Assembly: GCA_010093995.1 (NCBI GenBank)
Contig: ML992518.1
Location: 126,093 to 187,173 of the forward strand
Reading direction: 5' to 3'
Source: Elsinoe ampelina
Lineage: Eukaryota
Length of the DNA stretch: 61,081 nucleotides
Shown here: positions 1-57,239 of the stretch, in pieces
Layout: each line of letters opens with the position of its first letter
Position numbering within the stretch: the first letter of the stretch is position 1
The notes under the pieces: generated by a model
Told to the model about the DNA's origin: nothing
The model's input: only the letters and a program-made list of their open reading frames with translations
The model's database searches: none
Made by a program: the position numbers and the translations under genes

Positions 1-1066
1 CCTTAAGCTACTTAGGGTCCTTATAGGTTTAGGAGAGCTAATAGGCCTTAGAGTTAGAGTATAGTTAGCTAAGGAACATCTAGTATATTAGTTACTATAA
101 GCATAGCAAGTATAGGCCTTATTAAGCTAACTAGGCAAAGTAATACACTTACTAAACTTACTACCCCTACCCTTACTCTAATTATTACTAGAGTTAGATC
201 CCTAACACTTAGTATAGCAATTAGTACTATAGTAAACTACTCTACTAGTAGCACTAGAAGCTATTAAAGTAGTAGAGTAGTTAATAGATCTAGTAAGGTT
301 AACTTACTTAGTTAGATCCTTAACTAGAATAGGATTAGTAACTACTAGGTATATACTATAGGTACTAAAGGCCTAGACTACTATAGACCTCTAGATAGGA
401 TATAAGTTAGCATAGTTATAATAACTAATTATCCTAAGCCTAAGGAGAGTATTCTAGATTATATCGGTTAACTATTAAGTTAAAGTCTAAGTTAATTAGG
501 CTATTAATGTTAGCTTGTGCTATTAATACTTTATAGCTACTTACTAAGAGTATTAAGACAAGTAATTAGTCTTATAGTAGTATTATAATTAACATTAGAA
601 GTACTAGNNNNNNNNNNNNNNNNNNNNNNNNNNNNNNNNNNNNNNNNNNNNNNNNNNNNNNNNNNNNNNNNNNNNNNNNNNNNNNNNNNNNNNNNNNNNN
701 NNNNNNNNNNNNNNNNNNNNNNNNNNNNNNNNNNNNNNNNNNNNNNNNNNNNNNNNNNNNNNNNNNNNNNNNNNNNNNNNNNNNNNNNNNNNNNNNNNNN
801 NNNNNNNNNNNNNNNNNNNNNNNNNNNNNNNNNNNNNNNNNNNNNNNNNNNNNNNNNNNNNNNNNNNNNNNNNNNNNNNNNNNNNNNNNNNNNNNNNNNN
901 NNNNNNNNNNNNNNNNNCTAGCAATTATAAGCTAAACTAATAGTAAATTCTTACTAATAATTAGCTAACACTAACAATTATAAGCAATTATAAAGAGATA
1001 AAGTAATAAGCTAATTACTTTACTTACATATAACAGGACAGTTCTCTAGCTTTAGCAATCTATACT
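1..1066. mobile_element. RIP-degraded AT-rich transposon relic (probably the internal part of an LTR retrotransposon), interrupted by an assembly gap
   Basis: Strong TpA excess and CpA/TpG depletion, stop-rich in all frames; directly followed by a polypurine tract and an LTR. Confidence 0.8.
608..917. other. Assembly gap (N run)
   Basis: 310 N characters. Confidence 1.
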
Positions 1067-1218
1067 AGAGGGGGAGTGTTATAATAGAAGGCTAGTATAG
1101 CTTCTCTGGTACTGAAGAACTAGTACTAATAAGTCAGCGCACGCACAGTAGATAAATCGGTTATTGTAACTCTCTGAATGAAACACACGTCTCTCGATCC
1201 GATTTGCTAGTTACAACA
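1067..1218 (+). mobile_element. Polypurine tract (1067-1076) plus 3' LTR (1077-1218) of a Ty1/copia-like retrotransposon
   Basis: AGAGGGGGAG is immediately followed by TGTTATAA; the segment ends TTACAACA, whose reverse complement TGTTGTAA differs from the start only by a RIP-type TG>TA change. TG...CA termini. Confidence 0.75.
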
Positions 1219-1398
1219 GATACGGAGTTGGGAACTCCGAAGCCGCTTTTGGTCACCGCACGCCCTATGATACAACGTGATCAAGTGAGAAGAGATGCAT
1301 TCCATCTTAGCCGAGAATATCAATATCAGATACAAGAGCACGATCGGCCTTGTGTGATTGAGAAGTAGGCTCCCATTGAACAAAAAACTACCACAATC

Positions 1399-2550
1399 AT
1401 GTCCGCCGACCTCTTCCTCAAAAATCCCACTCCTGAAGAGATCAAAGAACAACTCACCCACAACTCTCTGGAATGGCGAGGCCCCTTGAGCACCGAAGCC
1501 TACTTCCGCCGTGAAGACGTCCTCGCCAACCAAGACCTCACCCGCTCCGGCGGCCTCACCTCGTGGATTTTGGCTCGAAATCTTCCCGATGGATCACGGC
1601 AAGCAGTCTGCTCGTGCGAGACTATCCGTAAACGAGCATTCCTGGCACTTGCATCTACTGGAAAAGTACAGGATGTGACTTGCTACGGTGTTGCTAGCGT
1701 GTTTACGATTCCCGAGCATAGAGGCAAGGGGTATGCGAGCACCATGTTCACCAACTTGGAGAAGTGGATGGACGAAGAAGGGAGGGGCAAAGGGGGGTTC
1801 AGCGTTCTGTACAGCGACGTTGGAAAGGAGTTCTACGCCAAACATGGATGGACGCCGAAGCAAAGTGCTCATGTGACGCTGCTGGTAGGAGGAGCGGAGA
1901 TGGGAAATGTGGACGGAGTGCGGTGGCTGAAGGAAGAGGATCTGCCTGCGCTATGCAAGAGGGATGAGGCGATCGTCAAAGCCAGACTGGAACGACTAGT
2001 GAGCCAAGGGAAGAATGCGGTTGCCATATGTCCAGATCTCAAGACTTTGCAGTGGCAACAGGCGCGCGAGGCCTTCTTGAGTAAGGAGTTGTACGGTAAA
2101 ACCCCAGAGATCCAAGGCGCACTATTCAAGACTGGCACCGGTAAGGATGTCTGGTGCTATTGGACTAGGTGGTGGTACAATGCGGACGTCAAACAGACCA
2201 AAGGCAACACGATGCACATTCTGCGACTCGTCGTCGACGAACCAGAATACGACGACATCGCTGCGTCTGACAAAGGTGTTGAGGAGGTACAAGCAGGGGA
2301 GACAGTCAAGGCTGTGGCAGCTTTGCTGAGAGCTGCCCTACAAGAGGCGAAGGAGTCAAACATGGAGGATGTACAAATCTGGAACCCCAGCTCGACAACG
2401 CTTGCCGCGGCTCGACTGTTGGAGGACAAAGCGGAGGTAGTGCATCGCGAGAAGGAAAGTATTGCCAGTTTCAGATGGTGCGATGACAAGCTCAATGACA
2501 TCGGAGACTCGATCGTCTGGACCGCAGTGGAAAAGTACTCGTGGTGCTAG
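1399..2550 (+). CDS. GNAT-family acetyltransferase (LYC1-like lysine acetyltransferase)
   Basis: 383 aa intact ORF; acetyl-CoA motif A VASVFTIPEHRGKGYAS; LYSDVGKEFYAKHGW. Confidence 0.8.
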   Translation: MSADLFLKNPTPEEIKEQLTHNSLEWRGPLSTEAYFRREDVLANQDLTRSGGLTSWILARNLPDGSRQAVCSCETIRKRAFLALASTGKVQDVTCYGVASVFTIPEHRGKGYASTMFTNLEKWMDEEGRGKGGFSVLYSDVGKEFYAKHGWTPKQSAHVTLLVGGAEMGNVDGVRWLKEEDLPALCKRDEAIVKARLERLVSQGKNAVAICPDLKTLQWQQAREAFLSKELYGKTPEIQGALFKTGTGKDVWCYWTRWWYNADVKQTKGNTMHILRLVVDEPEYDDIAASDKGVEEVQAGETVKAVAALLRAALQEAKESNMEDVQIWNPSSTTLAAARLLEDKAEVVHREKESIASFRWCDDKLNDIGDSIVWTAVEKYSWC

Positions 2551-2595
2551 CATGGACATGAAACCAATTTTATACAACGCAGGATGGAAGACTTC

Positions 2596-3825
2596 CTACC
2601 ACTTTCGAGATCTTGACTCATCGAAGTTACCACCTTGCCGCTCCTTCTCTACCCTGGCGTCAAAGTCGGTTTGTGCTTCCGTCTGAGCAAGCTGTCGATC
2701 TTCCTCCCTTCGAGAGAAAGCGAAACTGTCTCCGACGGTCGATCCCTGTTGCTGTTCACGTTGTGTTCCATCTGCGCCCTTGGTTGCTGCTTCTCTGCGT
2801 AACCGCTCCCACACACCTCCTGTCTGGACTGCCGAGTCTCGCCTCTCCGGGCCAGGTTGCGGGGACTGTCGTCGTTGTGCTTGTTGTTGCTGCGGAGCCG
2901 TACGAGACTCTCTGTCCGCCATTCTTGATTCGTATTGCTGTTTGCGCTCATTCTGCTGCATTTGACTGTCGGATAGAAGCCCAGTATCACCATCGCCGGG
3001 AGCCAGATCATCCATGAAGGCACCTCCGGTGGGCGACATATCATCGTCCTGGGCAGCTGCGGCTTTGGGACGGGAGGCGGCTTGTCGATTTTGGCGGGCT
3101 CTTTCCCACACCGTACCCGCTCGTGCGGCCTGGCTATCCATGCGTCCTTCAGTCGATTCCACCGGACCTCGTTGTGTGGTTATTGGAGGAGGCATACCTC
3201 CTTGTCGCTGCTGCAGCTTGGTTTTGAGGGCTTCTCGGAAGTCTTTGAGTCTCGGGTCTGTCACGGTGCCAGCAACATCAGTCGTCGAAGCCACGGAACC
3301 CCAGAAGAATATGCCTAGGAACATGGCGAACCCTGCATATGTGGAGAATCTCAGACCGTGCCATGCTGCTCTTGCTTGTGATCCCCTCAAGAATGAGAAC
3401 TTGTTGGGATCAAACCAATCTTTCCCGCCCGGGTTGTAAAAAGGGAATTTGAAGGTCTCGCGCCCGCTGTACGTCCAGAGAGCACCCGCAACGAGACCAG
3501 TGGGATATGCGTAGGAAGCAATCGTCACTGATTTTGCAAACTTGAAGGACAGAGCATCGACCTCTTCCTGGCGGAACGGTCTCCCAAGTATGGCACGCGA
3601 CTCTGCTAAGCTCTTCTTGAGGAGGTCTATTCTTGCCGGTGTATCCCATCCGGTAGGACCAAAGGCGCCGATTGGTTTCGGTAAGCCTCCAAGATTTATC
3701 CGCCATTGCTCTTCGGTCTGGCCTGTGGCATCTTGCTGATCGTTCGAGTCGAAGGTGTAGTCATTTGGGGGAGAGTCGGAAAAGCCACTGTCGGAGGCGG
3801 GCGCTACTGCCTCTTGGAGGACCAT
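2596..3825 (-). CDS. Conserved fungal hypothetical membrane protein
   Basis: 409 aa ORF, two hydrophobic segments, Q/R-rich C-terminus ending AQTDFDARVEKERQG. Confidence 0.7.
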   Translation of the reverse strand: MVLQEAVAPASDSGFSDSPPNDYTFDSNDQQDATGQTEEQWRINLGGLPKPIGAFGPTGWDTPARIDLLKKSLAESRAILGRPFRQEEVDALSFKFAKSVTIASYAYPTGLVAGALWTYSGRETFKFPFYNPGGKDWFDPNKFSFLRGSQARAAWHGLRFSTYAGFAMFLGIFFWGSVASTTDVAGTVTDPRLKDFREALKTKLQQRQGGMPPPITTQRGPVESTEGRMDSQAARAGTVWERARQNRQAASRPKAAAAQDDDMSPTGGAFMDDLAPGDGDTGLLSDSQMQQNERKQQYESRMADRESRTAPQQQQAQRRQSPQPGPERRDSAVQTGGVWERLRREAATKGADGTQREQQQGSTVGDSFAFSRREEDRQLAQTEAQTDFDARVEKERQGGNFDESRSRKW

Positions 3826-4605
3826 GCTGTCGGTGTAGTTCGATGTCGTCCTGGAACTAGATCATGATGCGGAGAAGGCGAGCAGGTCTCGAAACAGGTC
3901 GGTGAAAGAAAAGCATCGGCTGCTATCGGTGTTAGATGCTGACCTGGGAAGCTCAAGGTGAGGTTGAAGATGAGGTCATCTTGGCGGGGTCGTTGAACCT
4001 CATACCATAACTACTGTAACTTAGCTTGACAATGTGTTTTCTTCCTGCCAACGCAAGCTTGATGTGTGGTAGTGTTCACTTATTCACCGACCAGCAGTCT
4101 CGTAGATATTTAGGTGATGATGCTCTTATGAGGTCGGTCATCGTTTCTTTCATGTTCGATACAGCTCCTCGATCTTTTCTTCATTCACAACACGCGATAT
4201 TGTCATGTCTGCTTGCACAATACGAGCATTCCCTGCTCGTACAAAGGCGCCCGGTATACATTTGGCTATGGACTTGCGACAGGAGGGAATTGGGGGAGCT
4301 CGAGGCTCTTCCAGCCACTACGACAGGAGGGGCAGGCCAAAGACCGCTGACTAGCGGGACACTCCTTGTCCGGAGAGGTTGAATCATGCTGGACGTAGGT
4401 CTAGCAGTGACGTGGCAGCGATCTGGTACTCGTAGCTGTACTGTAGGATCACAGTCAGACATCATTTCGGCACACAGCCTGATCGAGAATCAAAGGCATC
4501 GGCAAGGCACTCTCGACTGACGTAGTGATGGACGCTTTTCCACTATACGAGACTCCGCCACTAAGCCCACGACGCTTCATCAGTCTTGTTCTCGTCTGCC
4601 AGCAC

Positions 4606-5748
4606 TCAAACCGCCACTGTTCGATACTCCTCGTTCTTGTCTGGTTCCCAGTAGCCGACGTAGCCGTCCCCGCTAGTCAAGTACGTTCCCACTGCTTGCT
4701 CTTCTGCCGCCGCCCGAAACACTGCGTGCTTCTTGTTGGTCCATTCCAAACCTTTCTAAATGTGGCCTACTTCGTCCTCAAACTCAGCATCCATCTCTGG
4801 CCTCAACAGATATACGATTGAGTACTTGTGGCGACCGTTTTCATCCTTGTGGGGAATGATGCGGTGCAATGCCGACGCCAGGACTCCACCCGAGATAAAC
4901 GAAGGGAATCCCCCACATTGACGACCGCATGATCCGGCTTCGGCGCGATATAATACCATTCATCGTCGTTGGGTTTCTGGGCTTGGAGACCGGCCACTTC
5001 GGTAAAGACGATCGAGTGACTGCCGGCATCGGTGTGGGCAATTTGTCCCACCCTGTCCGGCTCTTGTTCAGCTAGCGTATAATTGAGCAGTCCAAGAGCG
5101 GTTGGGCAGGTTTAACCCTCGCGATGGTAGTGTTGGTACGTTTGATCATCTTTCAGACCCAATGCTTCGGAGAGGCGTGTGAGGATGATGTTGCTCATTC
5201 ATCGGAAATCTGCCATTGCCTTCTTCAGCAGATTGAGCCGCTTGGAAATTTCCGCCGGGCCAGGAAATTCCGATGCATCCCTGATCTTGGAGATTGGGTG
5301 CTCGAAAAGCTGCGCGGGAGCAATCGACACCTGTCTGTCTGTAGGGGCTTACAAATCATTGTGCCTTCAACCCCATCCTTGACACCTTCGATTGGACCAT
5401 TACCATGTCCCGCTGGTTTATACCTGGTCTGTCAAGACTTTCCTTCACATGATCTATGGCGTGTCAGATTGAGATCACCTACCCGAAGACCAAGTTCTCA
5501 TCATAGTCTCTGTCTACCAACCAGGCCGACTTCTCCTCTTGGGGAAGATCGTAGAACTTGAGAGACAGATCATACATCTGCTGTACATCCTCCAAGACAC
5601 TCCCAGAGTCGACACCCCGACAGTCCAGGTAGAAGAAGCCGAGACCTACGCAAGCTCGCAGCAGGCTCTGCATTGTTGAGGGTCGTCCGTCGATCAAATC
5701 TGGCAGCGAAACGCTGACCAGCTCGGCATCCTTCCTGTCATCCATCAT
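4606..5748 (-). pseudogene. 2-oxoglutarate/Fe(II) dioxygenase (IPNS-like), disrupted
   Basis: DIOX_N-like ACVGLGFFYL; HTD...H(R) facial triad, VVNVGD, KYSIVYLLRP. In-frame stops at 5199-5201, 5112-5114 and 4756-4758, a frameshift near 4895, and a phase-incompatible second intron. Confidence 0.85.
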
Positions 5749-6176
5749 GGTGGAAGGTCAGATACTCAGGGAGATTCTCGATGAACAAACAGACAAGCCT
5801 CACGGTGCATCCGGAGTCATATGGTCATGGGGCATCGCACTCGATGACTTTCGACTCCATCTCTTGCTTTCAGAGTGCAAGCTGACATAGCCAACGGACT
5901 CTTACCCAATGCAGCAGTTCTCCGGATCCTTCTTCTCCAACTTCAGACTGGGTCTTCGTCATGTCGAACAGGAGATCATCACGACTCACAACACTGGTGA
6001 GACGGAGGCTCGCCACCGGCCTGTGGTATGTCTGCTTGTGTCACAGCTTACACGAGCTGTTCGGTGCCGATGTCTCGAGAAAGCGATACAGGGAAGCCAT
6101 GCCTGATCATGTGGACTTCAACATGATGAGCTCTCCCTCCGCAAGGCTAGTAGATCAATGTTCACTCATATATCGA

Positions 6177-6740
6177 CTACTGGACTCCCTCGATCAATTC
6201 AACGTCATCCTTGTCGTCTTCGTGAAACACCAGCGCCCTGACTTCAATGCTCTGCCGTGGCGCTCGATCAGCCATCTCTGGATCATTAAAGGCAGCATGT
6301 GGTACTCTTCTCGCCCGGTCAACAGCTTTGCTATCGTAGAACTTGATCATAATGACCTCTCTCGGGGTCTGGGCGAACTTTGTAGTACCATTCATGTTTT
6401 GGATTTGGCCTGATCGTACACGGTTCGCCAATCCAGTCGGGGTAGATCGACTTCACCGGTAGTATATCGCTCTCGGGGACGGAGTGAGAATTGCACACAG
6501 CCAGTGGACCCGATAGATGGTGTTGATGGGCCGCCAAACGTTTATGACTTGGTAGCGGCAGCGGAGAAGTCGCTCTGCCTCGGCTCTCATATGACGGCGT
6601 ATCTGGTTCACGGTACCACGTCCAGACTGGTCGGTGTGGGCTCGCTTCACAGGATGTCGTTCGTCATCAGGATCGTGGGCCTCTGGCTTAGGACGACGGA
6701 TGGTATGGTCGGAGATGTGCAACTTAGACGCCCTCGTTCT
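6177..6740 (-). pseudogene. AsaB/GA4-desaturase/CmcJ-like hydroxylase-desaturase, N-terminally truncated and frameshifted
   Basis: Motifs HxxDHTIRR, AHTDQS, RYQVINVWRPI, PLAVC, HEWYY, KFYDS, RVPHAAF and RQSIEVRALV are spread over three frames; the N-terminal part is absent. Confidence 0.85.
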
Positions 6741-6854
6741 GGCCGTTCTCGGCATCATATTGCCACCGGGCAATTACTCGATTGGGAAATATCCGCCATA
6801 TCCATGTCAATCCGTCAGTACACGATCACACATGCTTCAAGATCAAGATTCCAT

Positions 6855-7850
6855 TCATGCACGAAACTCAGTGAGTATTTGCTGAGCTCTGGTCAGTCGT
6901 AAATTCTCTGGTCCCATCCACAGCGCTTTCAACTCTGCTCTCGGCTCTCCAACTTCCGTCCAGGTGTCGCCCAATGTGACTATCGTCCTGCCATTCCATC
7001 TGCCAGGCTTCATGAACGAGTCGTCATCCTTGCCATACAGTTCAACGGGTCTACTCTGCTGAGCCGTCGCGGAAAAGTGAATTGCCCACCCGACGTGGTC
7101 TGCATCACTGACTGGAAGCCCGGCATCTATGATTGGCGCAGCGAGATGTTCTGGCAGCTGATTCGTGATGGTGGCCGCCGGAACTACCGCATTGATGGTG
7201 ATGTTGTCTTTAGCGGTGACCGACCTTGGTGCCCAGACGAGCCCAAGCATCTGGCAAACGAGTATTAGCAGAGTGTTTGTTTGTTGCAGCGTACGATCGA
7301 CCTACCGCAGCTTTGCACGAGCTGTAAAGTGGTAATGAATGCTCGGGCGCCAGGCCTGTGGTACTGGCAACGCGATGCTGCCGCCTCCAACCTGCTTCCT
7401 CATTCGGGAGAGTGCGAGCTTGCAAAAGTTGATGCTTCCTCTGACATTGGTGTCGAAGACATCTTGCGCGGGCAAGGCAAGCTTGCCTTCTTCGTCGAAG
7501 GTGTCGTTGAAATAATTAACGTAGTCACTGGCTCCTCCGTTGGCAACAGCAAAGTCCACACTCGCCGCACGATCAAAAGCCTCGACAAGATCTTTCCAAC
7601 TTGGTTGATCACACCGTATATACTCAATCCTGGGGTGCTACCGCTCTCTCGTAGGTGTGATGTCCAGGTTCAGACCCTTTGCGCCCCGTTCTGCAAAGAT
7701 CTTGGCCGTGGCGAGACCTATTCCCGAGCTTGCACCTACGCCACGTGTTAGCCCAAAACCATGCTAGACATGTGGATGAATCGTACCTGTGATAAGGACG
7801 GTTTTGCCATGCAGCGGAGGTCCACTCTATATCACCTCAATAGTCGTCAT
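6855..7850 (-). pseudogene. Short-chain dehydrogenase/reductase, disrupted
   Basis: Spliced GKTVLITG|ASSGIG, VANGG, YSSCK (YxxxK). In-frame TAG at 7827-7829 and 7638-7640, frameshift near 7370. Confidence 0.85.
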
Positions 7851-7867
7851 CTTGGAATTGGCTGTAT

Positions 7868-9453
7868 CTGTCAGTGTTTTGGCCTAGATTCTTGGAAGAC
7901 ATGCTACTGACTTGCGACCAATGCAGCCTGGTGGTCCAAGGGAGAAAGGCTGGCTAGCTTCTCGCACATCACCGCTATCACTATCGAGCCAAAGTTTTGG
8001 TACAAAGCAGTATGGATCCTTGAAGTAATTATCGTCGTATGTGGCAGTCCATGCAGACGTGTAGACTTCCGTCCATGAATTGTTAGCTAGGTCGCACAGT
8101 TTGGTCGGCCGATACTGACACCCTGTGGAGTCCACATGCCGTCGATCCACTTCCCAGGAGATAAGCGAGGAAAGCCTTGCGAACCAGGTGTAAAGAGACG
8201 AAGACTTTCTTGAATCACAGCGTGGAGATATGGAAGCTGGCTAGTAGCCGTGGCTGTGATCTCTTCCACAGTGGCGAAGCGCCCTCGCAGCTCAATTTGC
8301 AGTTGACGGAGACAGATCGGATACTTGCAAAGGTGATAGGTCGTGGAAGCCAGGAATGTCGATATCGTTTCGCCACCTGCCACACTGTCCGCAGTCAGCC
8401 AAGGACCAATGAACGTCTATCATTACATGAGCTAGGTTCGCAGAATGCGCCGTCAACTCCTCGGCGGAGACACTGCCGCTCTCAACCTTGTCTACTATAT
8501 TGGCCAGGAAATCTTTGCGGCCGCCCCGCTTGGCAAGACGCCTGTCTACATTTCAGATCAGTCAGTATGGTACGAGGCATTCCGACTCACCTTCGAATCA
8601 GGTCACGACTGTAAGAATGATTCTTCTCTTGTATCCCTGCAGTCAAGGGAGCGATCAGCCGGCCGACGGCAAGCACTGCGGGCCACCGTCTCAAATTGTC
8701 CACCAAAGTGATGAAGAAGACATATTTCGTCAGCATCTCAAACCAGAAATGTGGTCTTTCCTTCTCAATGCAACGGAACGATTCTCCGAACGCCATCTCG
8801 CCCAAGATATCGAAAGCGATCGTCTCATACCAGTGCGTCATGTTGAGCCCCTCAGGCGAAGAACCCTTGACCCTTAGTTTGGCCAGCATGCCATGAACAC
8901 AGTCTTTGATCACTTGTTCCTGTTCGGCGAGGGCTTTCGTCGAGAAGGCCGCACCGAGGTTCTTCGTCATTTCAGCATGTCGCTCAGGATTCCGTTCGCT
9001 ACCGATGCATTTCGAATCGTATCCCGCTGCAAAAACGTCATAGAATTCGCTCTTGATACAAGGAATCTGTCCGGCTGGCGGATATCCGTAGATGGTCTTC
9101 CAGGACGTTGCAGATGCGAATGAAAGCTCGTTGGGCGACACTCGAAAGACAGACCCTGTGGCGATCGGAGATCTGGCTTGCACGACCCACCGTGCTTCCG
9201 ATGTTCTTCTTCAATTGTCCGATGGTATCGTCCAGACATTGAGTGGTGGAATCGCCACAGCTGTGGCTTGTCAGTCTTTCAACTACATGTAGGACCGTTG
9301 GCTGACCAGACAACAGCGGCCTAGTATGGGCCCGGGTACACTTGCGAGCGGATGAAACCACAAGTTGTATACGATCGATGAGACCAGATACAGGCCGAGC
9401 ATAATGAGAATGCCTGACACCAATTGGAGCATACTGAGATTTCCTCCACTCAT
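7868..9453 (-). pseudogene. Cytochrome P450 (Tri11/CYP65-like), disrupted, last exon missing
   Basis: N-terminal TM + HPLASVPGP, RVSPNELSF, FDILGEMAFGESF, AGGET, ExxR (ESLR), heme motif FSLGPPGCIG. A likely 4-nt insertion near 8431-8435, a 3' splice site AG>GG at 8074, PER changed to PKL, and no C-terminal exon. Confidence 0.9.
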
Positions 9454-10058
9454 GTTGAGAGTGCTAAAGAGAGGTGAGAATGCCTGCATTACAAGGCTGT
9501 GATGATTGGCGGATAGAGGCCATTGGTGTGATCCTGAGTGATCACAGCCTCTCTGCTGGCAGTATTCCTTGAAATGGCAGTGGTAACGAGCCATACACTG
9601 GACCGGAGGTTTCTTGTTCGAGTTACTGACCACACCAATCGAGCAACCGTGAGGACCAAGCAACTCTCGAAATGCGACTCCAACGGTGTCTGCATAGAGT
9701 GTGATTGAAGAAACCCTAGCAAGATAATTGACCTACGACAGATATGGCGCTCATGGCAGTTGTGTCGGACCTCTCGAATCAATCTTTTCGGTTCCTATCA
9801 ATTGTTGTGTGGCTCTCATTATGACGCCTACTCTCACGGTCACTGACACCTACCAGTGCATATTTCTCTGTATCTATCGCTGGCGCAGGATTGCAACTCA
9901 ACCGTTGAACAAGTTTCCAGGGCCTTGGAGCCGATTCTCGGCGGTGGGAGTTGGTTCTCATAGATGCGTCTACGCTTTGCGATATGCCTTCCTTTTACCG
10001 CATTCGCCACTCGGTGTTGAGTCTGGTCCTGAACTGAATAATATTGTCTGAGAACGCA

Positions 10059-11189
10059 ATGGCTACAGCATCAATTCTGCCTATTCCAATCCAGCACCGC
10101 TATCACACGCCTGAGGTAGATGAGCCTCGGAACGGATTGATTCACCATTGCAGACACCAAAACTGGAGGATAAGATTCAAGCGTCATTTGCAGCGCCGAT
10201 CGACCAACTTGACGCCCCAAGTAGTCGGACAGCGGTGATCCATCCCAATGCAGTTGAGGTCGCCGGACAAGTGGATGGCGACTTCATCAGAGATTGGGAC
10301 TTTCCATCAGAGAAGGCTGTAATGAAGTTCCTCGCCGCCGGCTCCAGTCGAGTGACGTGTCTGTACTTTCCGATGGCAAGGGATGATCGTCTCCACTGGG
10401 CCTGCAGAGTACTGACCATACTGTTCTTGATAGACGGTAGATTCGCCTATGACAGGACGATGAGATTGCAATGGCTAACATTGATCCAGACCTTCTGGAG
10501 GACATGTCATTCGAGAATGGCTTGGCTTACAATAACAAGCTGATGCCTATCATGCGTGGTGATGTCCTCCCTGATCGCACCTGTCCAGTCGAATGGATCA
10601 TGTATGACCTATGGGAAGGAATTCGGGCATGCAACCGCGAATTGGCGGACAATGTCCTCGAGCCGACGTTTCTCTTCATGCGATCACAGACGGATAGGGA
10701 TCTTAGCGTCCTCAAGAACCTCGGGCAGTACCTCGAGCATCGGGAGAAAGATGTCGGAAAGGCCCTTCTGTCGGCTCTCATGTGCTTCGCCATGGATTTG
10801 CGTCTGACTCTGGACGAGATGATCTTGGTCAAACCACTGGAGAGAAACTGCTCAAAGCACATCTAGATCGCAACGACATCTGCGGTTGGGAGAAAGGAGT
10901 CCTCGCCGCGAGCAAGGGTCATGCGGAAGGCGGTGTGCTGTGCTCTGCTGTCCAGATCCTGGCCAACGAGACTGAGTTGACTGTTCCGGCAACAAAGCGA
11001 GTACTCTGGGCCATGGTGAGAGGGTGGAGTGAGCGCCACGATCAACTCGTGTCGACGATAGAAAAGGTAGGATATAGCGGAAATGTTGCAAGATATCTGA
11101 AAGGGCTTGAGTACCAGATGATTGGCCACGAGGATTGGAGTCTGTCGACGCAGAGATACACAGACGTCGAGGATGCGAATGCGTTCTGA
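10059..11189 (+). pseudogene. ari1: Aristolochene synthase-like sesquiterpene cyclase, disrupted
   Basis: Near-colinear with Penicillium/Aspergillus Ari1 motifs: VTCLYFP, spliced DDLLED (intron 10437-10489), RGDVLPDR, REKDVGKALLSALM, ATKRVLW, KGLEYQM, W...T.RY. TAG at 10864-10866 plus a 1-nt frameshift just before a degenerate NSE motif (NDICGWEKG). Possible short intron 10116-10153. Confidence 0.92.
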
Positions 11190-12150
11190 TTTGTACCGCA
11201 CATACTTCGCTACATCGTTCTGGTTCGACTCTTGCCCTCCTGATCAGCCTCAGGTCTTCGTTGTCGTCCACGTGTGAAGTGCGGTGATGGAGAAGAAGAT
11301 GGAACGTCAAACCCGAAGTGCAGCAAAAGGCAAGCCCTCGACTGCAGCAAATTGCCAATCCCGACAAACATCACACGTGTCTCTTGACGCTGCCATGATC
11401 ATGGAAGCTACTCAGAAGATACACAATGACTTTGCCTCAGCTCCCAAGTCTTTCAAATCTGTGTCCATACGTGCGCTTTGCTACCGTGGGCGTTGTGTCC
11501 ATCTTGCGTGGCCCAAACTAGTTGCTAGCCCTAGGAGGTCTCGGTGACTGCCTGTTCGGGCAACATGCGGGACCTCGCCAGGGGACCAACCTTGCAGGTC
11601 TAGTAGAGGGTCGACGGCAGGGACGATCGGACGATGTCAAAGCATCAACGTCAGACACCTGAAATCGTAGGGAGATCTGCTTGGAATTGAGAAGGGCATC
11701 GAGCCATGATGACGCTGGGTACCGTGACAAACATCACCACAAGCTGGTTCGATGTTACGAACAAGCAGCCTTTACTGTCGCCGAGCTTGAAATCTCCATA
11801 CTGGATCTCTGGGTATGTATCCAGACTCTCTGCTAGCCTAACAGGCTGGTGGCATCTGCTCATCTCGGTCTTTACCATCGCCCTGATAGCTCATCATTTC
11901 GGGTGAAACAAGAGACAAAAGCTTGCTCCCGGCATCTTGGTCATTGGTGGTCATGGTAAACAGAGCATTTCGAAGAGCCGTGATCGATTCGTTCACGATG
12001 CGAGATCCATGGTGGTTGAGGGCTATCGACAGGCTAGCATTAGTTCCATGGCACTCGAATATTTTGCTGACCGTAAACAGACGAACAAGGGCATGTTCTA
12101 TGTTCCAAGCAATCTTGGTGAATGTCTCATACTTCCCACCAGGTATCTTA

Positions 12151-12342
12151 GTTTCACTCCACAGGAGCACTAACGTTCTCCACGGGGAAACGAGCACTCC
12201 CCTAGAAACGAGCATACCTGTGCACTTGCCCAATTAGATCGAGAAGATCCTAGGGTATAGCCCTACACTCTGTGAGGGTGCTCGTTTCTTAGGGGTTGCT
12301 CGTTTCTCCATGGAGAACGTTAGTGCTCCTGTGGAGTGAAAC
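12151..12342. mobile_element. MITE-like element with ~65 bp terminal inverted repeats
   Basis: The left arm GTTTCACTCCACAGGAGCACTAACGTTCTCCA... matches the reverse complement of the right arm (first 32 bp perfect); GAAACGAGCA sub-repeats; flanks TTA and TTG. Confidence 0.8.
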
Positions 12343-12664
12343 TTGACGAGAGTGGGCAGTCCAGGTTGAACGATGACTACCTCTTCCGTGCAAACCATGC
12401 CAGCTCCCCCGTGAGCTGCCGGCGTGTGAGATCGCTCCGACATCCATGCCCCCTGACAATGCCAACAAGGACGGATTGACGGAAACTCCCTCAATAGGAA
12501 GGTTTCCGCACGTGGGCGCCGTCGGAACTTTCTCGACATGATCCGTATCATGGTACTCAGGGACCTATAGGTAGGGCTGTAGCACCAGCGAGAAAGGTGG
12601 CAGTTCTGCCCGACCGTATTCAGAGAGAACGGGCTAGCACCAGAACGTCTACACTACTGCCACA

Positions 12665-14473
12665 ATGGTCGCCAATTCAACGGGGAATGAGCCCATGGGA
12701 CCTGATCACAGGCCCCTGATCGCTAATGCCAGCGGCATTGGTATCTCCACAGCCAGTCTCACCTCCAGCCCGTTCAACAGCGGCATGACCACGGATGCCG
12801 ACGGGAAGACCCATGATCTGTTCCAGCCCTACAAGGTGGAGCAATGTGATGAGGGTCTGAGGTACGATACACTTCAGGTTCACGCCGGACACAGACCGGA
12901 CAAAGAGACCCACGCAAAAGCAGTCCCAATCTATAGTAGTGTCGTAAGTTTCATACGAGCCCGCCTTCGTTTGATGACGAACTGAACCATGACGAGTTCT
13001 TTATCTTTACCGACAGCGAGCATGCTAAGCGAGTATGCGCCGCGCAATAAGCCGGCTACTTCTATACAAGAATCTCGAATGTTTATCGGCTCCCAAGGCC
13101 CCTTTGATCACTGATCACTGACTCTTCATCAGCCAACAGTTGGAGTCCTGGAGAAGCGAGCTGCCATTCTGGAGGGCGGTACCGCCACTGTAGCAGTTGC
13201 GTCCGGTCAAGCATCCATATTCAACATAATCATCTGCCTTGCCTCAGCTGGGGACAATGTCGTTGCATACATTAACTTGTATGAAGGCACATACAGCCTT
13301 TTAAGGACTCTGCTACCTCGTCTGGGCATCTCTGTGAAGTCGGCCAAGCGTGAGACACGAGAAAAGTATGAGGAGCTCATCGACGAGAACACGAAACTCC
13401 TCTTTGTCGAGACTATCGGCAATCCAAGATGCAGTGTACCAGATATGCAAGATCTGGCGGATGTAGCTCACGAGAATCTGCTGCCGTTCGTGGTAAGTTG
13501 GGGTACTCGCTAGTCGCGTAGTAGCATATGCTGATCTGTGTACAAGGTGGACAACACATTTGGTGCGTGTGGCACGTGGCGCCGACCCAGAGATTTTGGT
13601 GCCGATATCATCCTTCACTCTGCCACGAAATGGATGGGCGGACACGGAACGACGATGGGCGGCGTCATCATTGACTGCGGAACATTCGATTGGGAAAAAG
13701 CGGGAGTCAAGCTCCCACGATTGATGAACAAAGACGGTCCAATGAGCTTCTCATATCAGAAAACGTTCGGAAATGTCGTATTCGCCATGGCCGTGCGGTT
13801 GGATATCCTGATGGAAGTCGGCTCCATACTCTCCCCTACAGCGACTCAGCAATTGCTCATTGGCATGAAAACGCTGAGCCTCCGCTCCGAGCGACATGTA
13901 ACTAACACATTGGCAGTAGCTCGCTTCCCGGAATCCCATCCCAGGGTTGCATGGGTGCAGTATCCTGGTCCCGAAAGCAATGAGTACCACGCGAATGCAG
14001 TCAAGTACCTTAAGGACGGCTTTGGAGGAGTACTCGCATTTGGTCCCAAAGGCGGAGACGTGGCAAGCAAGACACTCCTCAATCATGTCAGGGTCTTCTC
14101 ACGTCAAACCAACGTCGGCGACCAAAAGACTCTGGCCACGCATCCTTGGAACTCGACCCACGTCGTCGTGTCGGAGAAAGACCGTCGCGAAGCCGGTATC
14201 ACTCCTGCTTTCATCCGCATATCCATAGGTACAGAAGATGTTCGGGACATCATTGAAGACCTCGATCAAGCGCTTGGTAAATTGCCAGAGGAGCTTGTCA
14301 ATTCGTACGACGATAGAAGAGAGTTGAAGGAGGTTCTGGCAGCCAAGGGTGCCGTTGTTACGGGCACGAAGGGCAATGATGGAGTCGGTAAGGTTGATTA
14401 CATTAAGGATGATGTGCTTTTGCAAAGATCAAGCATTCCGGCAGGAAGACAGGACATCACCGGTAATTGGTGA
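12665..14473 (+). pseudogene. PLP-dependent O-acetylhomoserine (thiol)-lyase-like enzyme (Met17/Fub7/LolC family) with a premature stop
   Basis: DTLQVHAG, AVPIYSS, YTRISN|PT, LEGG, ASGQA, ETIGNP, VDNTFG, HSATKW (PLP lysine), NVGD.KTL..HP. In-frame TAA at 13048-13050 in exon 2; three introns. Confidence 0.85.
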
Positions 14474-14831
14474 AATCCGAATGAGCATGTGCTAGTGGGG
14501 TTTCTGACGGCGTAAATTGGCATTGCGGAGGATCTACGATGGCGCTGGATCTCTTGCGGTAGTTTTCGATACTAAAGGGAAGACCCTGCTTATCACTCCA
14601 CTTGACCTTGTGTCCAACTTGACTGGTGGCTTGGCCTCAAGATGCAGGGCCCACCGTCAGCGGGATCAGCGTCGAAGCAGAGTTCTGCTCAAGTTCCTGT
14701 CCCGTTGCGCGTGTGGATAGGGTTTGGATCGGGTGTGGTGAGTGTTGTATTGCCCGAAATTAGACAAGTTGCCGCGATGAGCACTTGAAGAACGGCAGTA
14801 CAGTCTGATACTAGATTTGGTGATGAATGCG

Positions 14832-16171
14832 CTAAGCATTGGGTGGTTGTAGATCAATAGAGCCAGAGAGGGTCTCTCGCAAGTCTCGAATCCTCAGCAG
14901 CAGAGCTTGTAGAGCGTCTTGATGGGACCTCCAATGCTCTTGATCTGCTCGCAGGATGAGTGATTCGCACAAAGCAAAGATACGTCTTGCTTGAGAAAAA
15001 ATCAGAAAGCCGAACAGGTCGGATCGTTCTTGGTGAGTATCAACAGTATACTCTCCAACCAGAACAGGCGCTCCGTCCGATTCCTCAAGATCCGCCAAGT
15101 CGGTCCAGCAGGGAGTTATGTGTGATTGCGCACCTTCCTCCCATGCAGAGGCGACATGCTCGAGCATGCCCGTCATCTTTTCCAACAGCAGGATCAGAAA
15201 TGTCATCAGGCGATGTGAGGATGCGCATGTCTGGCACTGTGAGAGCGTAAGATGTTGTGAGATGAGTTGCTTGAGAAGATACAGGGTCCTGTTGGCTATC
15301 CTGATGTTGGAGACCTTGTCATGGTTTGCCAAAACCTCAAGCAGCCCAAGGGTTTGTGAGAAACATCGGCACGGAGGCTCGCGGCTGTTACCGGAGAAGT
15401 TGTGGATGTAAGAATCGGATATGAAGGCTGCGCTACTACCCGTTTCAGTATTGGAGAAAGGCGGGATGATCTCCTTGTTCGTGGGATGTACTGCGAGTGT
15501 TTGATCCGGTTCTGAGGGCGTCATGCTATATCGTTGAAGCATATCTTTCGTATGGTGTGATTCAAGGTCGACTAGAAAGGAATCGTTGTCCTCAGTATCA
15601 ATGAAAATGAACCCAGGCTCGTCCAGTGAAGGAAGGGGAAATTCGCTGTTGGGAAGGGCCGACCAGGGCGATTGTGCTGCAGGTAGCGCCTCGTGCACCC
15701 CAATCGAGGCAGATGCCGGTGAATTGATCGAAAGTGGCCAGGATCTGGTAGACAATTCATGTTCAGTCGAGATTGCCGAGCCTCTTGATATGCTGTGTAG
15801 CTTATGAACGGTGCGGGAGGTATCCGAAAGGATGACTGAGGATGGTGGGCTCGGCAGAGGTCTGGATGCCAAAGGCCTGGCGGACAATTTTTTTGATCGA
15901 GGACGCTTTGCATACGCAGTATTCGAATAGATGCATGTCAGGTTACGGCTTCGGCAGCGTTGGCAGCCGAACTTCTGACCACTGCATTTCAGCTGTTTAC
16001 GCGTCAGCATCCGACATTGCAACAGATGGAACCTCGTGAGCTTGCCTTTTTCGACCGACAGGCATCGCAAGCAAAATGAACCACACTTTGGCCCGATTGA
16101 GGCGGGAGCGCAGATGAGGAGATGCAAACAACTTCTCCCATATCATCCTGGGTCCGCAAAGTTGTAAACAT
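14832..16171 (-). CDS. Zn(II)2Cys6 transcription factor (AflR-like cluster regulator), apparently intact
   Basis: ACDACRSKK|LKCSGQKFGCQRCRSRNLTCIY joined across a 53-nt GC-AG intron (15993-16045, branch GCTGAC); C-terminal CxC/CxxC helical domain; no internal stops. Alternative ATG at 16141. Confidence 0.85.
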
Positions 16172-56479: not shown

Positions 56480-57236
56480 ATGGTCAAGTACGCTCTGACT
56501 CTGCTTTGCGCGACAGCTTCGGCGCATTGTAAGTCAGCACTACCATACAGCGCCATGCTCGGACTAACGGACTTCAGATGCATTCCCGACAACTACCTTC
56601 AACGGGGTCACTTCCCAGAACTGGCAGTACATTCGACAGACTGAACATGGAGGTCTCACCGACAATACCAACGGACCTGCCGACATGAATGGCGTCCAAG
56701 GAGCCTGCTTCCAGGGCTCTGTCAAGGGCGCCCCCGAAGTCCTGACCGTGAATGCGGGAAGTCAGATCAGCTTCAACGCAAACAACAACATGGGCCACGT
56801 TGGTCCCTTGATGTGGTTCATGGCTCGTGTTCCGGACGGCTCGGATGTCAAGACATGGGACCCTGCTGGCAAACAAGTCTGGTTCAAGATATCACAGTCC
56901 GGCATGAAGGCTGGGTCGACATGGCCTGACTTCACCTCTGGAGGTACCGTACAGACAACCACGATTCCAAAGGCTGTACCCAATGGAAATTACCTCCTCA
57001 GGTTTGAACAACTTGCCTTGCATGTTGCCAATCAGCCGCAGTCATACATCGCTTGCGCCCAGGTCAAGATCACCAATGGAGGCAGCGGGAACCCGTCACC
57101 TCTTGTCACCTTCCCAGGCCAGTATAAATCGACCGACCAAAGTGTCTATGGTAATATCTACAACTACGGAGGCGCATATAGTTACCCTGCCCTATCGGTG
57201 TGGACTAGCACTATAGTAGCCAAGTTTGCAGCATAG
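56480..57236 (+). CDS. AA9 LPMO abutting the RIP block
   Basis: MVKYALTLLCATASA-H|YAFP (intron 56529-56578), GHVGP, WFKI, GNYLLRFEQLALH, QSYIACAQ. Confidence 0.88.
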
Positions 57237-57239
57237 CGC

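Follow-up and report, generated by a model that had tools for sequence, protein, structure and literature searches.

Eremophilane clusters described to date

The PR-toxin (prx) cluster of Penicillium brings together an aristolochene synthase, a short-chain dehydrogenase (SDR), P450s, and a regulator, as does the locus described here. The jan cluster of Penicillium shows the same likeness, with an aristolochene synthase accompanied by an SDR, P450s, and a regulator, but has no PLP enzyme, unlike our cluster. The jan pathway yields an eremophilane-amino acid adduct from a flavoprotein-made enal and free amines (PMC12335561). The pairing of this cyclase with a PLP enzyme has been described in print in one case, the isa (sporogen-AO1) cluster of Isaria felina (Mycology 2026; PMC13647387). 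That article lists three P450s and an SDR alongside the aristolochene synthase; further isa genes encode a regulator, a homocysteine-like synthase, an ABC transporter, and an NRPS. Experiments reported there established IsaA as the cyclase, IsaC as the C8 hydroxylase, and IsaB as the C8 dehydrogenase; when IsaG (the homocysteine-like synthase) and IsaF (the NRPS) were added in A. nidulans, no new compound appeared.

A larger set, termed group X, comprises 64 uncharacterized eremophilane clusters, mostly from Colletotrichum and including C. siamense; its defining genes, beyond the Emp2/9/4 core, are an Emp13-type P450 and an aKG oxygenase specific to the group (Shi et al., ACS Omega 2026; PMC13736955). 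The flavunoidine cluster of Aspergillus flavus resembles our locus in that a PLP lyase using O-acetylhomoserine, an SDR, and an aKG dioxygenase are part of a terpenoid cluster, and the amino acid that they make is joined to a sesquiterpenoid (FlvA/FlvB/FlvE/FlvF/FlvI; PMC8902786).

Gene content and state of the locus

The window is the whole stretch of DNA that was analyzed, 61,081 nucleotides in length, and the locus occupies its positions 4606–16171. The organism is Elsinoe ampelina, the grapevine-anthracnose fungus. Eight gene remnants are present, in the order 2OG dioxygenase, AsaB/NvfI-like oxygenase, SDR, P450, aristolochene synthase, P450 stub, PLP enzyme, and Zn2Cys6 regulator. The features are as follows, with the basis of each in brackets:

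4609..5757, minus strand, 2OG/Fe(II) dioxygenase remnant, DIOX_N and 2OG-FeII_Oxy (Pfam)
6183..6737, minus strand, AsaB/NvfI-like aKG oxygenase remnant (tblastn of E. batatas P0250)
6858..7865, minus strand, SDR remnant (alignments of Colletotrichum SDR P0267 and L001 exons)
7911..9453, minus strand, cytochrome P450 remnant, P450-A (Pfam p450 on three pieces)
10060..11189, plus strand, aristolochene synthase remnant (PDB matches, E. batatas ortholog P0122)
11721..12170, plus strand, N-terminal stub of a second P450, P450-B, tentative (similarity to L001 2–355)
12150..12343, no strand, MITE-like element, 194-bp inverted repeat (repeat search)
12665..14473, plus strand, PLP enzyme of the Cys/Met-metabolism family, O-acetylhomoserine-sulfhydrylase-like (Pfam PF01053, reading of the DNA, alignment with P0006)
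14832..16171, minus strand, Zn2Cys6 transcription factor, intact (reading of the DNA, joint 15992>16046)

The initial annotation had named seven gene families and regarded the cluster as a fossil. All seven families are present, as judged by Pfam, PDB, and protein comparisons, and the second P450 stub raises the total from seven to eight. ORFs of at least 220 aa number 26 in the window; none falls within 4606–13534, and the only two inside the cluster correspond to the regulator and to the final exon of the PLP gene, in agreement with a fossil status. That status does not extend to the regulator, whose family was correctly named and which is the sole intact gene of the eight. The PLP enzyme was also correctly recognized, with the correction that its lesion is one stop codon only; the remaining broken genes have frameshifts, stops, or missing ends. 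Pfam matches were obtained for 10 of the 19 ORF pieces (DIOX_N, 2OG-FeII_Oxy, p450 three times, Terpene_syn_C_2, Cys_Met_Meta_PP twice, and, below the Pfam cut-off, adh_short and Zn_clus). The housekeeping neighbors of the cluster retain long ORFs, and PKC1 adjoins it as had been proposed, based on its HR1, C1, and kinase domains.

The lesions were mapped by comparison with relatives, among them L001, a fungal metagenome contig. The 2OG remnant contains in-frame stops at 5201–5199, 5114–5112, and 4758–4756, located by alignment with L001 exons, and a frameshift near 4897; the 2OG protein P0284 of C. siamense (354 aa) aligns with it over residues 6–353 in four pieces and three frames at 59–76% identity. 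The AsaB-like remnant is equivalent to residues 113–297/298, the first ~112 residues being absent, and frameshifts near 6505 and 6380 put its central part out of frame. This piece gave no match in a Pfam search and is 91% identical to P0250 of Elsinoe batatas, which matches the solved 2OG dioxygenases PDB 7eus (E 1.3e-37) and NvfI. The SDR remnant has in-frame stops at 7829–7827 and 7640–7638 and a frameshift near 7365, and its intron (7305–7251) is still spliced; Colletotrichum SDR P0267, the neighbor of the cyclase there, aligns with it over residues 3–299. In P450-A the frame is broken near 9190, 8600, and 8430, an intron acceptor near 8072 is lost, and the last exon past the haem-Cys motif (~50 residues) is missing, an exon that L001 retains and that has no counterpart here. 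Colletotrichum P450s P0439 and P0440 align with P450-A over residues 11–452 in four pieces and three frames. P450-B contains an in-frame stop at 11904–11906, the remainder of the gene being absent, and is 30% identical to the P450 N-terminus that adjoins the PLP gene at L001 2–355; this assignment is tentative because a Pfam search of P450-B gave no match.

Three pieces of the cyclase matched only aristolochene synthases in the PDB (7/7 matches each; E 2e-47, 1.5e-23, and 1.7e-25), identifying it as a true aristolochene-synthase relative, as initially annotated. The E. batatas ortholog P0122 aligns in four pieces and three frames, with frameshifts near 10120 and 10850. Splicing of intron 10436–10488 yields DDLLED. 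The NSE motif reads NDICGWEKG, and thus its Ser and Glu are lost; of the 51 columns conserved to 97% or more, the remnant deviates at 5. The PLP gene has four exons (introns 12944–12996, 13081–13132, and 13493–13546), with its single in-frame TAA at 13048–13050, and retains the PLP lysine motif SATKW. The regulator starts with the ATG at 16171 and encodes 428 aa across a 53-nt GC-AG intron (16045–15993); its CX2CX6C...CX2CX6-8C motif is complete, and it is 33% identical to the L001 regulator. The MITE-like element consists of two 65-nt arms, 91% complementary and 64 nt apart, in which a tRNA was looked for and not found. It is repeated elsewhere in the organism, with a summed contig depth of 51 versus ~6 for its neighbors and loose contig ends on both sides in four runs.

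Independent sequences and transcripts

The lesions recur in contigs of other sequencing runs. X3 contigs, from another sample and study, had 0 differences from the window over 4600–5328 (2OG remnant), 6216–7250 (AsaB-like remnant), 7319–7735, 8199–8658, 8736–10163, 10545–11369, and 14500–15992. An X4 contig over 12977–13201 contains the PLP TAA together with one SNP. Three exon-exon joints were seen in contigs, all at canonical intron ends: 7250>7306 (SDR intron removed) and 10435>10489 (cyclase, intron ends GT..AG) in X3, and 15992>16046 (regulator) in both X3 and X4. The relic is still transcribed and spliced.

Intact relatives and linkage

Cyclase and PLP genes are adjacent or at most three genes apart in 13 named species, based on protein accessions or locus tags, a linkage that rests on 221 scored cyclase candidates and covers a minority of the 38 PLP clade members. 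The two numbers are consecutive in nine species (C. plurivorum, C. sojae, C. musicola, C. abscissum, C. acutatum, C. simmondsii, C. tamarilloi, C. melonis, and, in three strains, Neoarthrinium moseri) and 2–3 apart in four (E. ampelina, Poronia, Hypoxylon sp., and Conoideocrella), the linked groups spanning Colletotrichum, Neoarthrinium, Xylariaceae, Conoideocrella, and Elsinoe. For C. trifolii, Diplogelasinospora grovesii, and A. parasiticus, the contigs that carry the representative PLP and cyclase genes are of unequal length and may belong to different assemblies. Six of the remnants have Colletotrichum relatives, and the remnants of the 2OG, AsaB-like, P450, and SDR genes can each be aligned over almost their whole length with a protein of Colletotrichum or E. 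batatas.

Contig L001 carries, within 12.3 kb, a PLP gene, cyclase, SDR, P450, 2OG, regulator, and second P450, with open frames and with intact DDxxE and NSE motifs. A 93%-identical relative, L006, is collinear with it (dN/dS 0.15; nine exon pieces, no stops). An AsaB-like gene was not found in L001 positions 1–12298, and the one in E. batatas lies ~630 gene numbers from the cyclase. The intact syntenic set that the initial annotation envisaged is thus represented by L001 and L006, and Ari1 homologs elsewhere are accompanied by homologs of the PLP enzyme, 2OG, SDR, P450, and regulator, whereas a lack of such co-occurrence would have refuted the pathway that it proposed. Its reading of a decayed cluster holds as well, with the lesions mapped against intact relatives.

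The locus resembles isa in clustering an aristolochene synthase with several P450s, a single SDR, a regulator, and a PLP gene, of which IsaG, described as a homocysteine-like synthase, is the putative counterpart. The two differ in that the NRPS and the ABC transporter of the published isa list have no counterpart in the window, and the two Fe/2OG-type oxygenases of the window (2OG, AsaB-like) are absent from that list. Like group X, the cyclase-PLP family is rich in Colletotrichum and has its own aKG oxygenase; the window 2OG remnant is 59–76% identical to a 2OG of C. siamense, whose family is sharply bounded, with representatives at 76–80% identity and then 45%. The window copy differs as a pseudogene set in a Dothideomycete, group X being mostly from Colletotrichum. 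The terms PLP and pyridoxal have 0 occurrences in the main text of the group X paper, and the cyclase-PLP family is probably, rather than certainly, group X of Shi et al. 2026. In flavunoidine biosynthesis, as described, lyase and dioxygenase are fused in one protein, a single-module NRPS performs the joining, a second cyclase-like enzyme forms the C–N bond, and the terpene is acoradiene (PMC8902786); the window cluster has separate lyase and dioxygenase genes, no NRPS, no second cyclase, and a relative of aristolochene synthase. Its single SDR would more simply be read as an IsaB-like C8-alcohol dehydrogenase of the eremophilane core than as a FlvB-like imine reductase. The designation of the cluster as undescribed is only partly right, given the gene pairing in isa and the similar, uncharacterized group X (PMC13647387, PMC13736955).

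The PLP enzyme

In a tree of 50 PLP rows, the window enzyme and all nine cyclase-linked rows fell inside a 38-row clade (support 100), parted from 12 housekeeping rows, including a basidiomycete, by a branch of 1.34 changes per site. This position outside the housekeeping clade, on such a branch, indicates an old separate lineage and not a recent duplicate. Of 150 columns conserved in both groups, 135 are kept and 15 are fixed differently, among them two housekeeping Arg residues replaced by Ala and Met in the cluster clade. A conserved C-terminal tail distinguishes subclade A. Among solved structures, the closest relatives are without exception gamma-replacement sulfhydrylases (480–396 bits), with lyases at no more than 276 bits. 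The best solved match of the window enzyme is Fub7 (fusaric acid), which shares fold family PF01053 with it, as does CysD/Met17. The enzyme is nevertheless not specifically Fub7-like: housekeeping CysD P0110 scores 671 bits to Fub7 and cluster enzyme P0006 480, indicating that Fub7 is close kin of the housekeeping O-acetylhomoserine sulfhydrylase, with the cluster clade a separate, older branch.

Proposed pathway and alternatives

We consider it about an even chance that the locus is a dead eremophilane cluster whose PLP enzyme acts on O-acetyl-L-homoserine in living relatives. By analogy with the characterized Isa enzymes, the cyclase would form aristolochene (IsaA), a P450 and the SDR would oxidize C8 to the enone (IsaC, IsaB), and further P450s and the Fe/2OG oxygenases would then decorate the eremophilane. 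The PLP enzyme would activate O-acetyl-L-homoserine by gamma-elimination to a vinylglycine ketimine, from which an unusual amino acid would be built or, alternatively, a 3-amino-3-carboxypropyl unit would be moved directly onto a nucleophile of the oxidized eremophilane; this PLP step we hold tentatively, at slightly under even odds. No product is on record for any member of the cyclase-PLP family; as the initial annotation proposed, it may be an N- or S-containing eremophilane conjugate.

The PLP gene might instead encode a spare homocysteine synthase for self-resistance, sustaining methionine synthesis when the product inhibits the housekeeping enzyme. Fungal clusters with extra target-enzyme copies are a familiar pattern, for example AstD of aspterric acid, and the cluster enzyme belongs to the housekeeping family and keeps most of the shared conserved columns, including the PLP lysine motif. 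We regard this as unlikely given the long branch outside the housekeeping clade, the fixed loss of two conserved Arg residues, and the distinctive tail of subclade A; furthermore, we know of no eremophilane that targets homocysteine synthase. An enzyme cutting a Cys or homocysteine adduct on an eremophilane enone or epoxide, to leave a terpenoid thiol, would draw on the readiness of eremophilane enones and enals to add thiols and amines (PMC12335561) and on the presence of cystathionine and methionine gamma-lyases in the fold family. Such C–S lyase activity is distinctly improbable, given the higher scores to sulfhydrylases than to lyases, and the literature searched ties no sulfur-bearing eremophilane to these genera.

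Neither the window cluster nor the 12.3 kb of L001 contains an NRPS, ligase, or acyltransferase, so no known route for joining an amino acid to a terpenoid is visible there. Together with the lack of any new compound on addition of IsaF and IsaG in the reported experiments (PMC13647387), this favors a small separate pathway that travels with the terpene genes, in which the PLP enzyme, perhaps aided by the 2OG and AsaB-like oxygenases, would form an unusual amino acid that stays free and is never joined to the terpene. We give that proposal little credence: the PLP gene lies directly beside the cyclase in nine species and in two orders, so tight a linkage being unusual for unrelated pathways, and one pathway-type regulator locus is common to the window and L001. 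A potential concern is whether the lesions are assembly errors or unrecognized introns in a live cluster, as the published annotation models both a cyclase (323 aa) and a PLP enzyme (433 aa, marked partial). However, both models evade the lesions: that of the cyclase takes its 5' exon from sequence antisense to the P450 and omits the helix that precedes the NSE motif, and that of the PLP enzyme begins past the stop. Contigs of other samples have the same sequence, one with the stop plus a private SNP, homology is continuous over the breaks with no room for introns, and adjacent housekeeping genes are clean. A live cluster is therefore largely refuted and very improbable.

With the cyclase frameshifted twice, two metal-binding residues lost, and six other enzyme genes broken or truncated, the eremophilane pathway cannot run in this genome. 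Judged from its sequence, the locus is a dead copy of a conserved fungal eremophilane cluster and a decayed member of a widespread family. The predicted core of this family combines an aristolochene synthase with an SDR and with a divergent PLP enzyme of the O-acetylhomoserine-sulfhydrylase-like type. The genes that apparently accompany it encode a Zn2Cys6 regulator, a 2OG dioxygenase specific to the cluster, and two or three P450s, with an AsaB/NvfI-like oxygenase added in some lineages. Our best guess is that the PLP enzyme supplies or attaches a homoserine-derived amino-acid unit.

Results

Gene content and decay of the cluster

The genes lying between positions 4606 and 16171 were delimited by reading the three coding-strand frames and aligning intact relatives, and their families were identified by Pfam (10 of the 19 ORF pieces in the cluster region gave matches), by PDB matches and by alignment with those relatives. 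What the initial annotation had described at this position was borne out, and all of the genes it named are present; its count of seven has to be raised to eight.

Gene remnants of the cluster (window coordinates and strand; basis of identification in brackets)
4609-5757, minus strand: 2OG dioxygenase remnant (Pfam, frames read, relatives aligned)
6183-6737, minus strand: AsaB/NvfI-like oxygenase remnant (alignment with the E. batatas AsaB-like protein P0250)
6858-7865, minus strand: SDR remnant (frames read, relatives aligned)
7911-9453, minus strand: P450-A remnant (Pfam, alignment with Colletotrichum P450s)
10060-11189, plus strand: aristolochene synthase remnant (PDB matches, alignment with the E. 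batatas ortholog)
11721-12170, plus strand: N-terminal stub of a second P450, P450-B (relative in metagenome contig L001)
12665-14473, plus strand: PLP enzyme of the Cys/Met-metabolism family (PF01053)
14832-16171, minus strand: Zn2Cys6 regulator, intact (ORF read)

The tailoring genes are damaged. Residues 6-353 of P0284, a C. siamense 2OG protein, align to the 2OG remnant in four pieces and three frames, with three in-frame stops and one frameshift. The AsaB-like piece is 91% identical to P0250, which itself matches the solved 2OG dioxygenases 7eus and NvfI; the part that survives corresponds to residues 113-297 of 298, and its middle portion is out of frame. Pfam gave no match for this remnant or its family, and the fragment used as a search query retrieved a single relative. 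The SDR carries one frameshift and two in-frame stops. For P450-A, Colletotrichum P450s align over residues 11-452 in four pieces and three frames; with introns allowed for, the frame is broken near 9190, 8600 and 8430, an acceptor is lost near 8072 and the last exon is missing. P450-B retains approximately 100 N-terminal residues with one stop and terminates at a 194-bp inverted-repeat element. The regulator reads through in a 428-aa frame that encodes an entire zinc-cluster motif, and its only intron is of the GC-AG type. ORFs of 220 aa or more are lacking from 4606-13534, and 24 of the 26 such ORFs in the window lie outside the cluster, whose housekeeping neighbors (PKC1, a CEF1-type Myb splicing factor and an SPB4-type helicase) have long open frames. 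The pattern shows an order of decay: deletions and frameshifts struck the tailoring genes first, the cyclase and PLP genes followed later, and the regulator is still intact.

RIP was ruled out as the cause of the decay, the TpA/ApT ratio of the cluster (0.44-0.68) and its GC content (about 0.52) being like those of the flanks. The ends of the window (1-2000 and 56000-61081) are AT-rich and RIP-like, with GC of 0.31-0.41 and TpA/ApT of 1.6-1.7; the left block includes a run of 310 N at 608-917 and is adjoined by an intact LYC1-like GNAT ORF (1369-2550). The inverted repeat at which P450-B ends is a MITE-like element (12150-12343) with two 65-nt arms, 91% complementary, and 64 nt between them. 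Contigs from four runs pile up on it to a summed depth of 51, compared to about 6 in the flanks, and leave into other sequence on both sides, indicating that the element is repeated in the organism; no second copy is found within the window. An 18-nt stretch at 12187 is absent from other copies. A tRNA-derived origin of the repeat is unsupported, as a tRNA search found none.

The cyclase remnant

All three pieces of the cyclase match only aristolochene synthases in the PDB (7 of 7 sequences for each piece), and named relatives are 60-73% identical. From its sequence the gene is the remnant of a fungal aristolochene synthase of the Ari1/Prx2/IsaA class I type, with a predicted activity of converting FPP to aristolochene. 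The Asp-rich DDxxD/E motif is kept, the sequence LFLID|DLLED being formed across a spliced intron (10436-10488). The NSE triad (N-D-x-x-S-x-x-x-E) is lost, the window reading NDICGWEKG compared to NDIYSYDKE in 1dgp and NDICSWEKE in E. australis; the Glu column of this triad is conserved in 88 of 90 relatives. After splicing there is still no single open frame: the E. batatas ortholog, P0122, aligns in frames 3, 2, 1 and 3, and only one of these three changes is an intron. Of 51 columns with at least 97% conservation among the 90 relatives, the window deviates at 5, whereas 67 of the relatives deviate at none.

A 37-nt GT..AG stretch at 10117-10153 was considered as a frame-restoring intron and rejected, because the E. 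batatas ortholog codes through it and it is unusually short; the usual fungal introns are longer. No contig spans this stretch with 31 nt on either side. The E. batatas model itself (KVT40_004412) has a 23-residue gap where the second frameshift of the window lies, and the N, D and S of the NSE triad fall within this gap. The cyclase lesion at this site may be older than the split between E. ampelina and E. batatas.

The PLP enzyme

Exons 3 and 4 of the four-exon PLP gene span positions 51-380 of profile PF01053; an intact relative, P0006, spans 1-380 of its 381 positions. Exon 4 retains VDNTFGA and HSATKWMGGHG, with the DNT aspartate and the PLP-binding lysine (S-A-T-K). A single TAA at 13048-13050 interrupts exon 2 where relatives carry Gly. 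Of 31 columns that are invariant throughout, the window deviates at 1; of 77 that are invariant within its own subclade, it deviates at 6. Its terminal branch is 0.54, compared to a median of 0.18.

Phylogenetic analysis places the enzyme apart from the housekeeping enzymes. In a tree of 50 rows, 12 housekeeping rows (a basidiomycete among them) are separated from a 38-row clade by a connecting branch of 1.34 with support of 100 on both sides; the window and all nine cyclase-linked rows are found in the 38-row clade, outside the housekeeping homocysteine-synthase clade. Within it, the window belongs to a 19-row subclade with Colletotrichum, Diaporthe, Fusarium, Neoarthrinium and Alternaria. 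The best solved match of the window enzyme is the fusaric acid enzyme Fub7, and a specific kinship with the Fub7/CndF type, gamma-replacement enzymes that form C-C bonds, was considered. It was rejected: the housekeeping CysD P0110 scores 671 bits to Fub7 (8erb) and the cluster enzyme P0006 only 480, which groups Fub7 with the housekeeping enzymes and sets the cluster clade apart. Among the 150 columns that both groups conserve, 15 are fixed for different residues, and at two of these Arg has given way to Ala and Met. The window's subclade also has its own C-terminal tail of 50-70 residues, which is lacking from the housekeeping enzymes and the other cluster subclades. This tail ends in ...DADVSLSK.NVP.GRQ...(G/R/L)NW or a close variant in the window (14300-14470) and in 11 of 18 subclade rows (P0002, P0004-P0007, P0013, P0015, P0016, P0018, P0019 and P0039).

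Confirmation of the lesions and transcription of the relic

A potential concern with the analysis of a decayed locus is whether the lesions are artefacts, and we consider this extremely improbable. Contigs of run X3, which come from another sample and study of the same organism, match the window with 0 differences over 4600-5328, 6216-7250, 7319-7735, 8199-8658, 8736-10163, 10545-11369 and 14500-15992, stretches that include most of the lesions, and a contig of run X4 over 12977-13201 carries the PLP stop codon together with a private SNP. On the other side stand the published E. ampelina gene models, in which one protein is 99% identical to the last PLP exon and another 100% identical to the cyclase exon. 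These models sidestep the lesions. The cyclase model P0121 (9574-11186) takes its first exon from sequence antisense to the P450 remnant and leaves out the helix that precedes the NSE motif; the PLP model P0001 (13118-14470) is marked partial and begins just past the stop codon. Both are artefacts of a forced frame that paper over pseudogenes and do not disprove the lesions. Two runs labeled as a second organism contain short contigs identical to the remnants at 5328-5585, 6754-6980, 7268-7596 and 10143-10375, and may be mixed samples.

The X3 contigs also contain exon-exon joints, each exact at the canonical intron ends, for the cyclase intron (10435>10489, GT..AG), the SDR intron (7250>7306) and the regulator intron (15993-16045; joint 15992>16046, GC..AG on the coding strand), the last of which is spliced in both X3 and X4 contigs. 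These three joints indicate that the runs are at least partly RNA and that the relic is transcribed and spliced; run kinds being guesses, the claim of transcription is taken from the joints alone. X3 also has unspliced pieces (e.g. 8199-8658), so its contigs cannot prove the absence of an intron.

Linkage of cyclase and PLP genes in other fungi

Relatives were taken from a PLP search (best 120 of 5949 matches) and a cyclase search (119 listed; 221 candidates scored), and linkage was judged from the accessions of 20 proteins and from six pairs on contigs of equal size. The two genes are consecutive in nine species: C. plurivorum, C. sojae, C. musicola, C. abscissum, C. acutatum, C. simmondsii, C. 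tamarilloi, C. melonis and, in three strains, Neoarthrinium moseri. Their spacing is 2-3 in E. ampelina, Poronia punctata, a Hypoxylon sp. and Conoideocrella, and 12-18 in C. scovillei and a fungal contaminant deposited as Quercus suber; in Xylariaceae sp. FL0594, Nemania sp. FL0916 and an 8.9-kb JGI contig they are on contigs of equal size. Several Colletotrichum have the SDR as the following gene. Counting against linkage, the cyclase and PLP representatives of C. trifolii, D. grovesii and A. parasiticus are on contigs of unequal size, and most other members of the PLP clade have no cyclase among the matches listed from the 221 candidates scored. In E. batatas the AsaB-like gene is approximately 630 gene numbers from the cyclase, and no PLP ortholog is among the 120 of 5949 matches listed. 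Six of the eight remnants, including the SDR, cyclase and PLP genes, have Colletotrichum relatives; relatives of the regulator and of the P450-B stub were found only in L001. By the initial annotation, the idea would have failed had homologs of the PLP enzyme and oxygenases never stood with Ari1 homologs elsewhere; the cyclase-PLP pairing does occur elsewhere, in Colletotrichum, Neoarthrinium, Poronia and others. These data show that Colletotrichum, Xylariales, Hypocreales and a Dothideomycete have all retained the cyclase gene next to a gene from an old, separate branch of the homocysteine-synthase family.

An intact relative in metagenomes

A scan of metagenome contigs yielded L001, for which the data cover positions 1-12298 of a 36.6-kb contig. 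These 12.3 kb hold a P450 start, the PLP gene, cyclase, SDR, P450, 2OG gene, regulator and a second P450 in open frames, with the DDxxE and NDIYSWDKE motifs intact; no NRPS or ABC transporter is found within positions 1-12298. A second contig, L006, is collinear with L001 at 92.9% identity. Their dN/dS is 0.15 over nine exon pieces without stops, indicating an intact cluster under selection. In a third contig, L002, positions 3-359 correspond to 358-1 of L001, such that the stretch 5' of the PLP gene that holds the P450 start is inverted, which could be either a true rearrangement or an assembly artefact.

The nearest relatives of the L001 PLP enzyme, cyclase and SDR are the Colletotrichum trio. 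When compared to 1.84 billion representatives, the L001 2OG exon finds three relatives with identities of 76-80%, beyond which no match exceeds 45%, the best match being the C. siamense protein; the 2OG remnant of the window is orthologous to this tightly bounded Colletotrichum family. The same 90% protein cluster also pulls in C. fructicola proteins named asaB and P450 with consecutive accessions, and this C. fructicola asaB protein shares 70% identity with the AsaB-like protein of E. batatas.

Discussion

Comparison with published clusters

The isa cluster of Isaria felina encodes one cyclase and one SDR along with three P450s, a regulator, an NRPS, an ABC transporter and a protein named a 'homocysteine-like synthase'. 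Aristolochene is the product of IsaA; IsaC places a hydroxyl group on C8, IsaB oxidizes this position, and IsaE and IsaD complete sporogen-AO1, while addition of isaF and isaG gave no new compound (PMC13647387). Compared by gene kinds, five are common to both clusters (cyclase, SDR, P450s, homocysteine-synthase-like gene and regulator), all of them present within 11.6 kb here, whereas the NRPS and ABC transporter of isa are absent from the window cluster: none is found in 4606-16171, where eight remnants and short spacers fill the region and leave no room for an NRPS. Shi et al. 2026 sorted 371 eremophilane clusters, of which the 64 of group X are mostly from Colletotrichum, have their own aKG oxygenase and an Emp13-type P450, and have no known metabolite; the main text does not mention a PLP enzyme (PMC13736955). 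Our 2OG remnant, with its Colletotrichum orthologs including that of C. siamense, is a candidate counterpart of the group-specific aKG oxygenase of group X. The flavunoidine type, as reviewed, combines a fused PLP lyase-aKG dioxygenase with a single-module NRPS, and a further cyclase-like enzyme forms a C-N bond (PMC8902786). All three are missing here; the PLP enzyme and the 2OG dioxygenase are encoded by different genes, which lie 7 kb from each other and on opposite strands, and there is a single cyclase. The jan cluster forms an eremophilane-amino acid adduct without a PLP enzyme (PMC12335561). Literature searches found no characterized function for a PLP enzyme in any eremophilane pathway. 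The 'undescribed' of the initial annotation is only partly right, the family having been glimpsed in print twice in 2026.

Possible roles of the PLP enzyme

With gene identities, decay, transcription and conserved linkage established, the locus belongs, as a pseudogenised copy, to a genuine and widespread cluster family. The reading of the initial annotation is partly supported: its decayed cluster holds, and the N- or S-containing eremophilane conjugate it proposed keeps the standing of a candidate product. By analogy with IsaA, IsaC and IsaB, aristolochene would be converted to a C8 alcohol and then to an enone; the single SDR would be the C8 dehydrogenase of this path rather than a reductase like FlvB. 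The PLP enzyme may then activate O-acetylhomoserine and either build an unusual amino acid, possibly together with the 2OG oxygenase in the manner of FlvA, or alkylate the terpenoid directly; this is a guess to which we give slightly less than an even chance. Where an NRPS is absent, direct alkylation is the more attractive option. In the boldest reading, the divergent PLP clade would be a terpenoid-tailoring enzyme that transfers a 3-amino-3-carboxypropyl group from O-acetylhomoserine onto an oxidized eremophilane via a C-O, C-N, C-S or C-C bond. We consider this proposal speculative and rather unlikely. If true, the outcome would be a class of sesquiterpene amino acids whose assembly needs no NRPS, and the silence of IsaG would be explained by a missing true terpenoid substrate or missing partner oxygenases.

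Other roles for the PLP gene were weighed against activation of O-acetylhomoserine. It is unlikely to be a self-resistance copy, a reading that its position outside the housekeeping clade counts against. We think it quite improbable that the enzyme is a C-S lyase, and equally so that the gene belongs to an unrelated amino-acid pathway that merely travels with the cyclase. Against the last of these stands the recurrence of the cyclase-PLP pairing across the lineages surveyed here.

Being a dead relic, the locus says nothing directly about the present products of this grapevine pathogen. Its value is as a pointer to a conserved cyclase-PLP pairing whose sole published attempt drew a blank, and the intact clusters of Colletotrichum and Neoarthrinium offer a route to the role of a gamma-replacement PLP enzyme in an eremophilane pathway.
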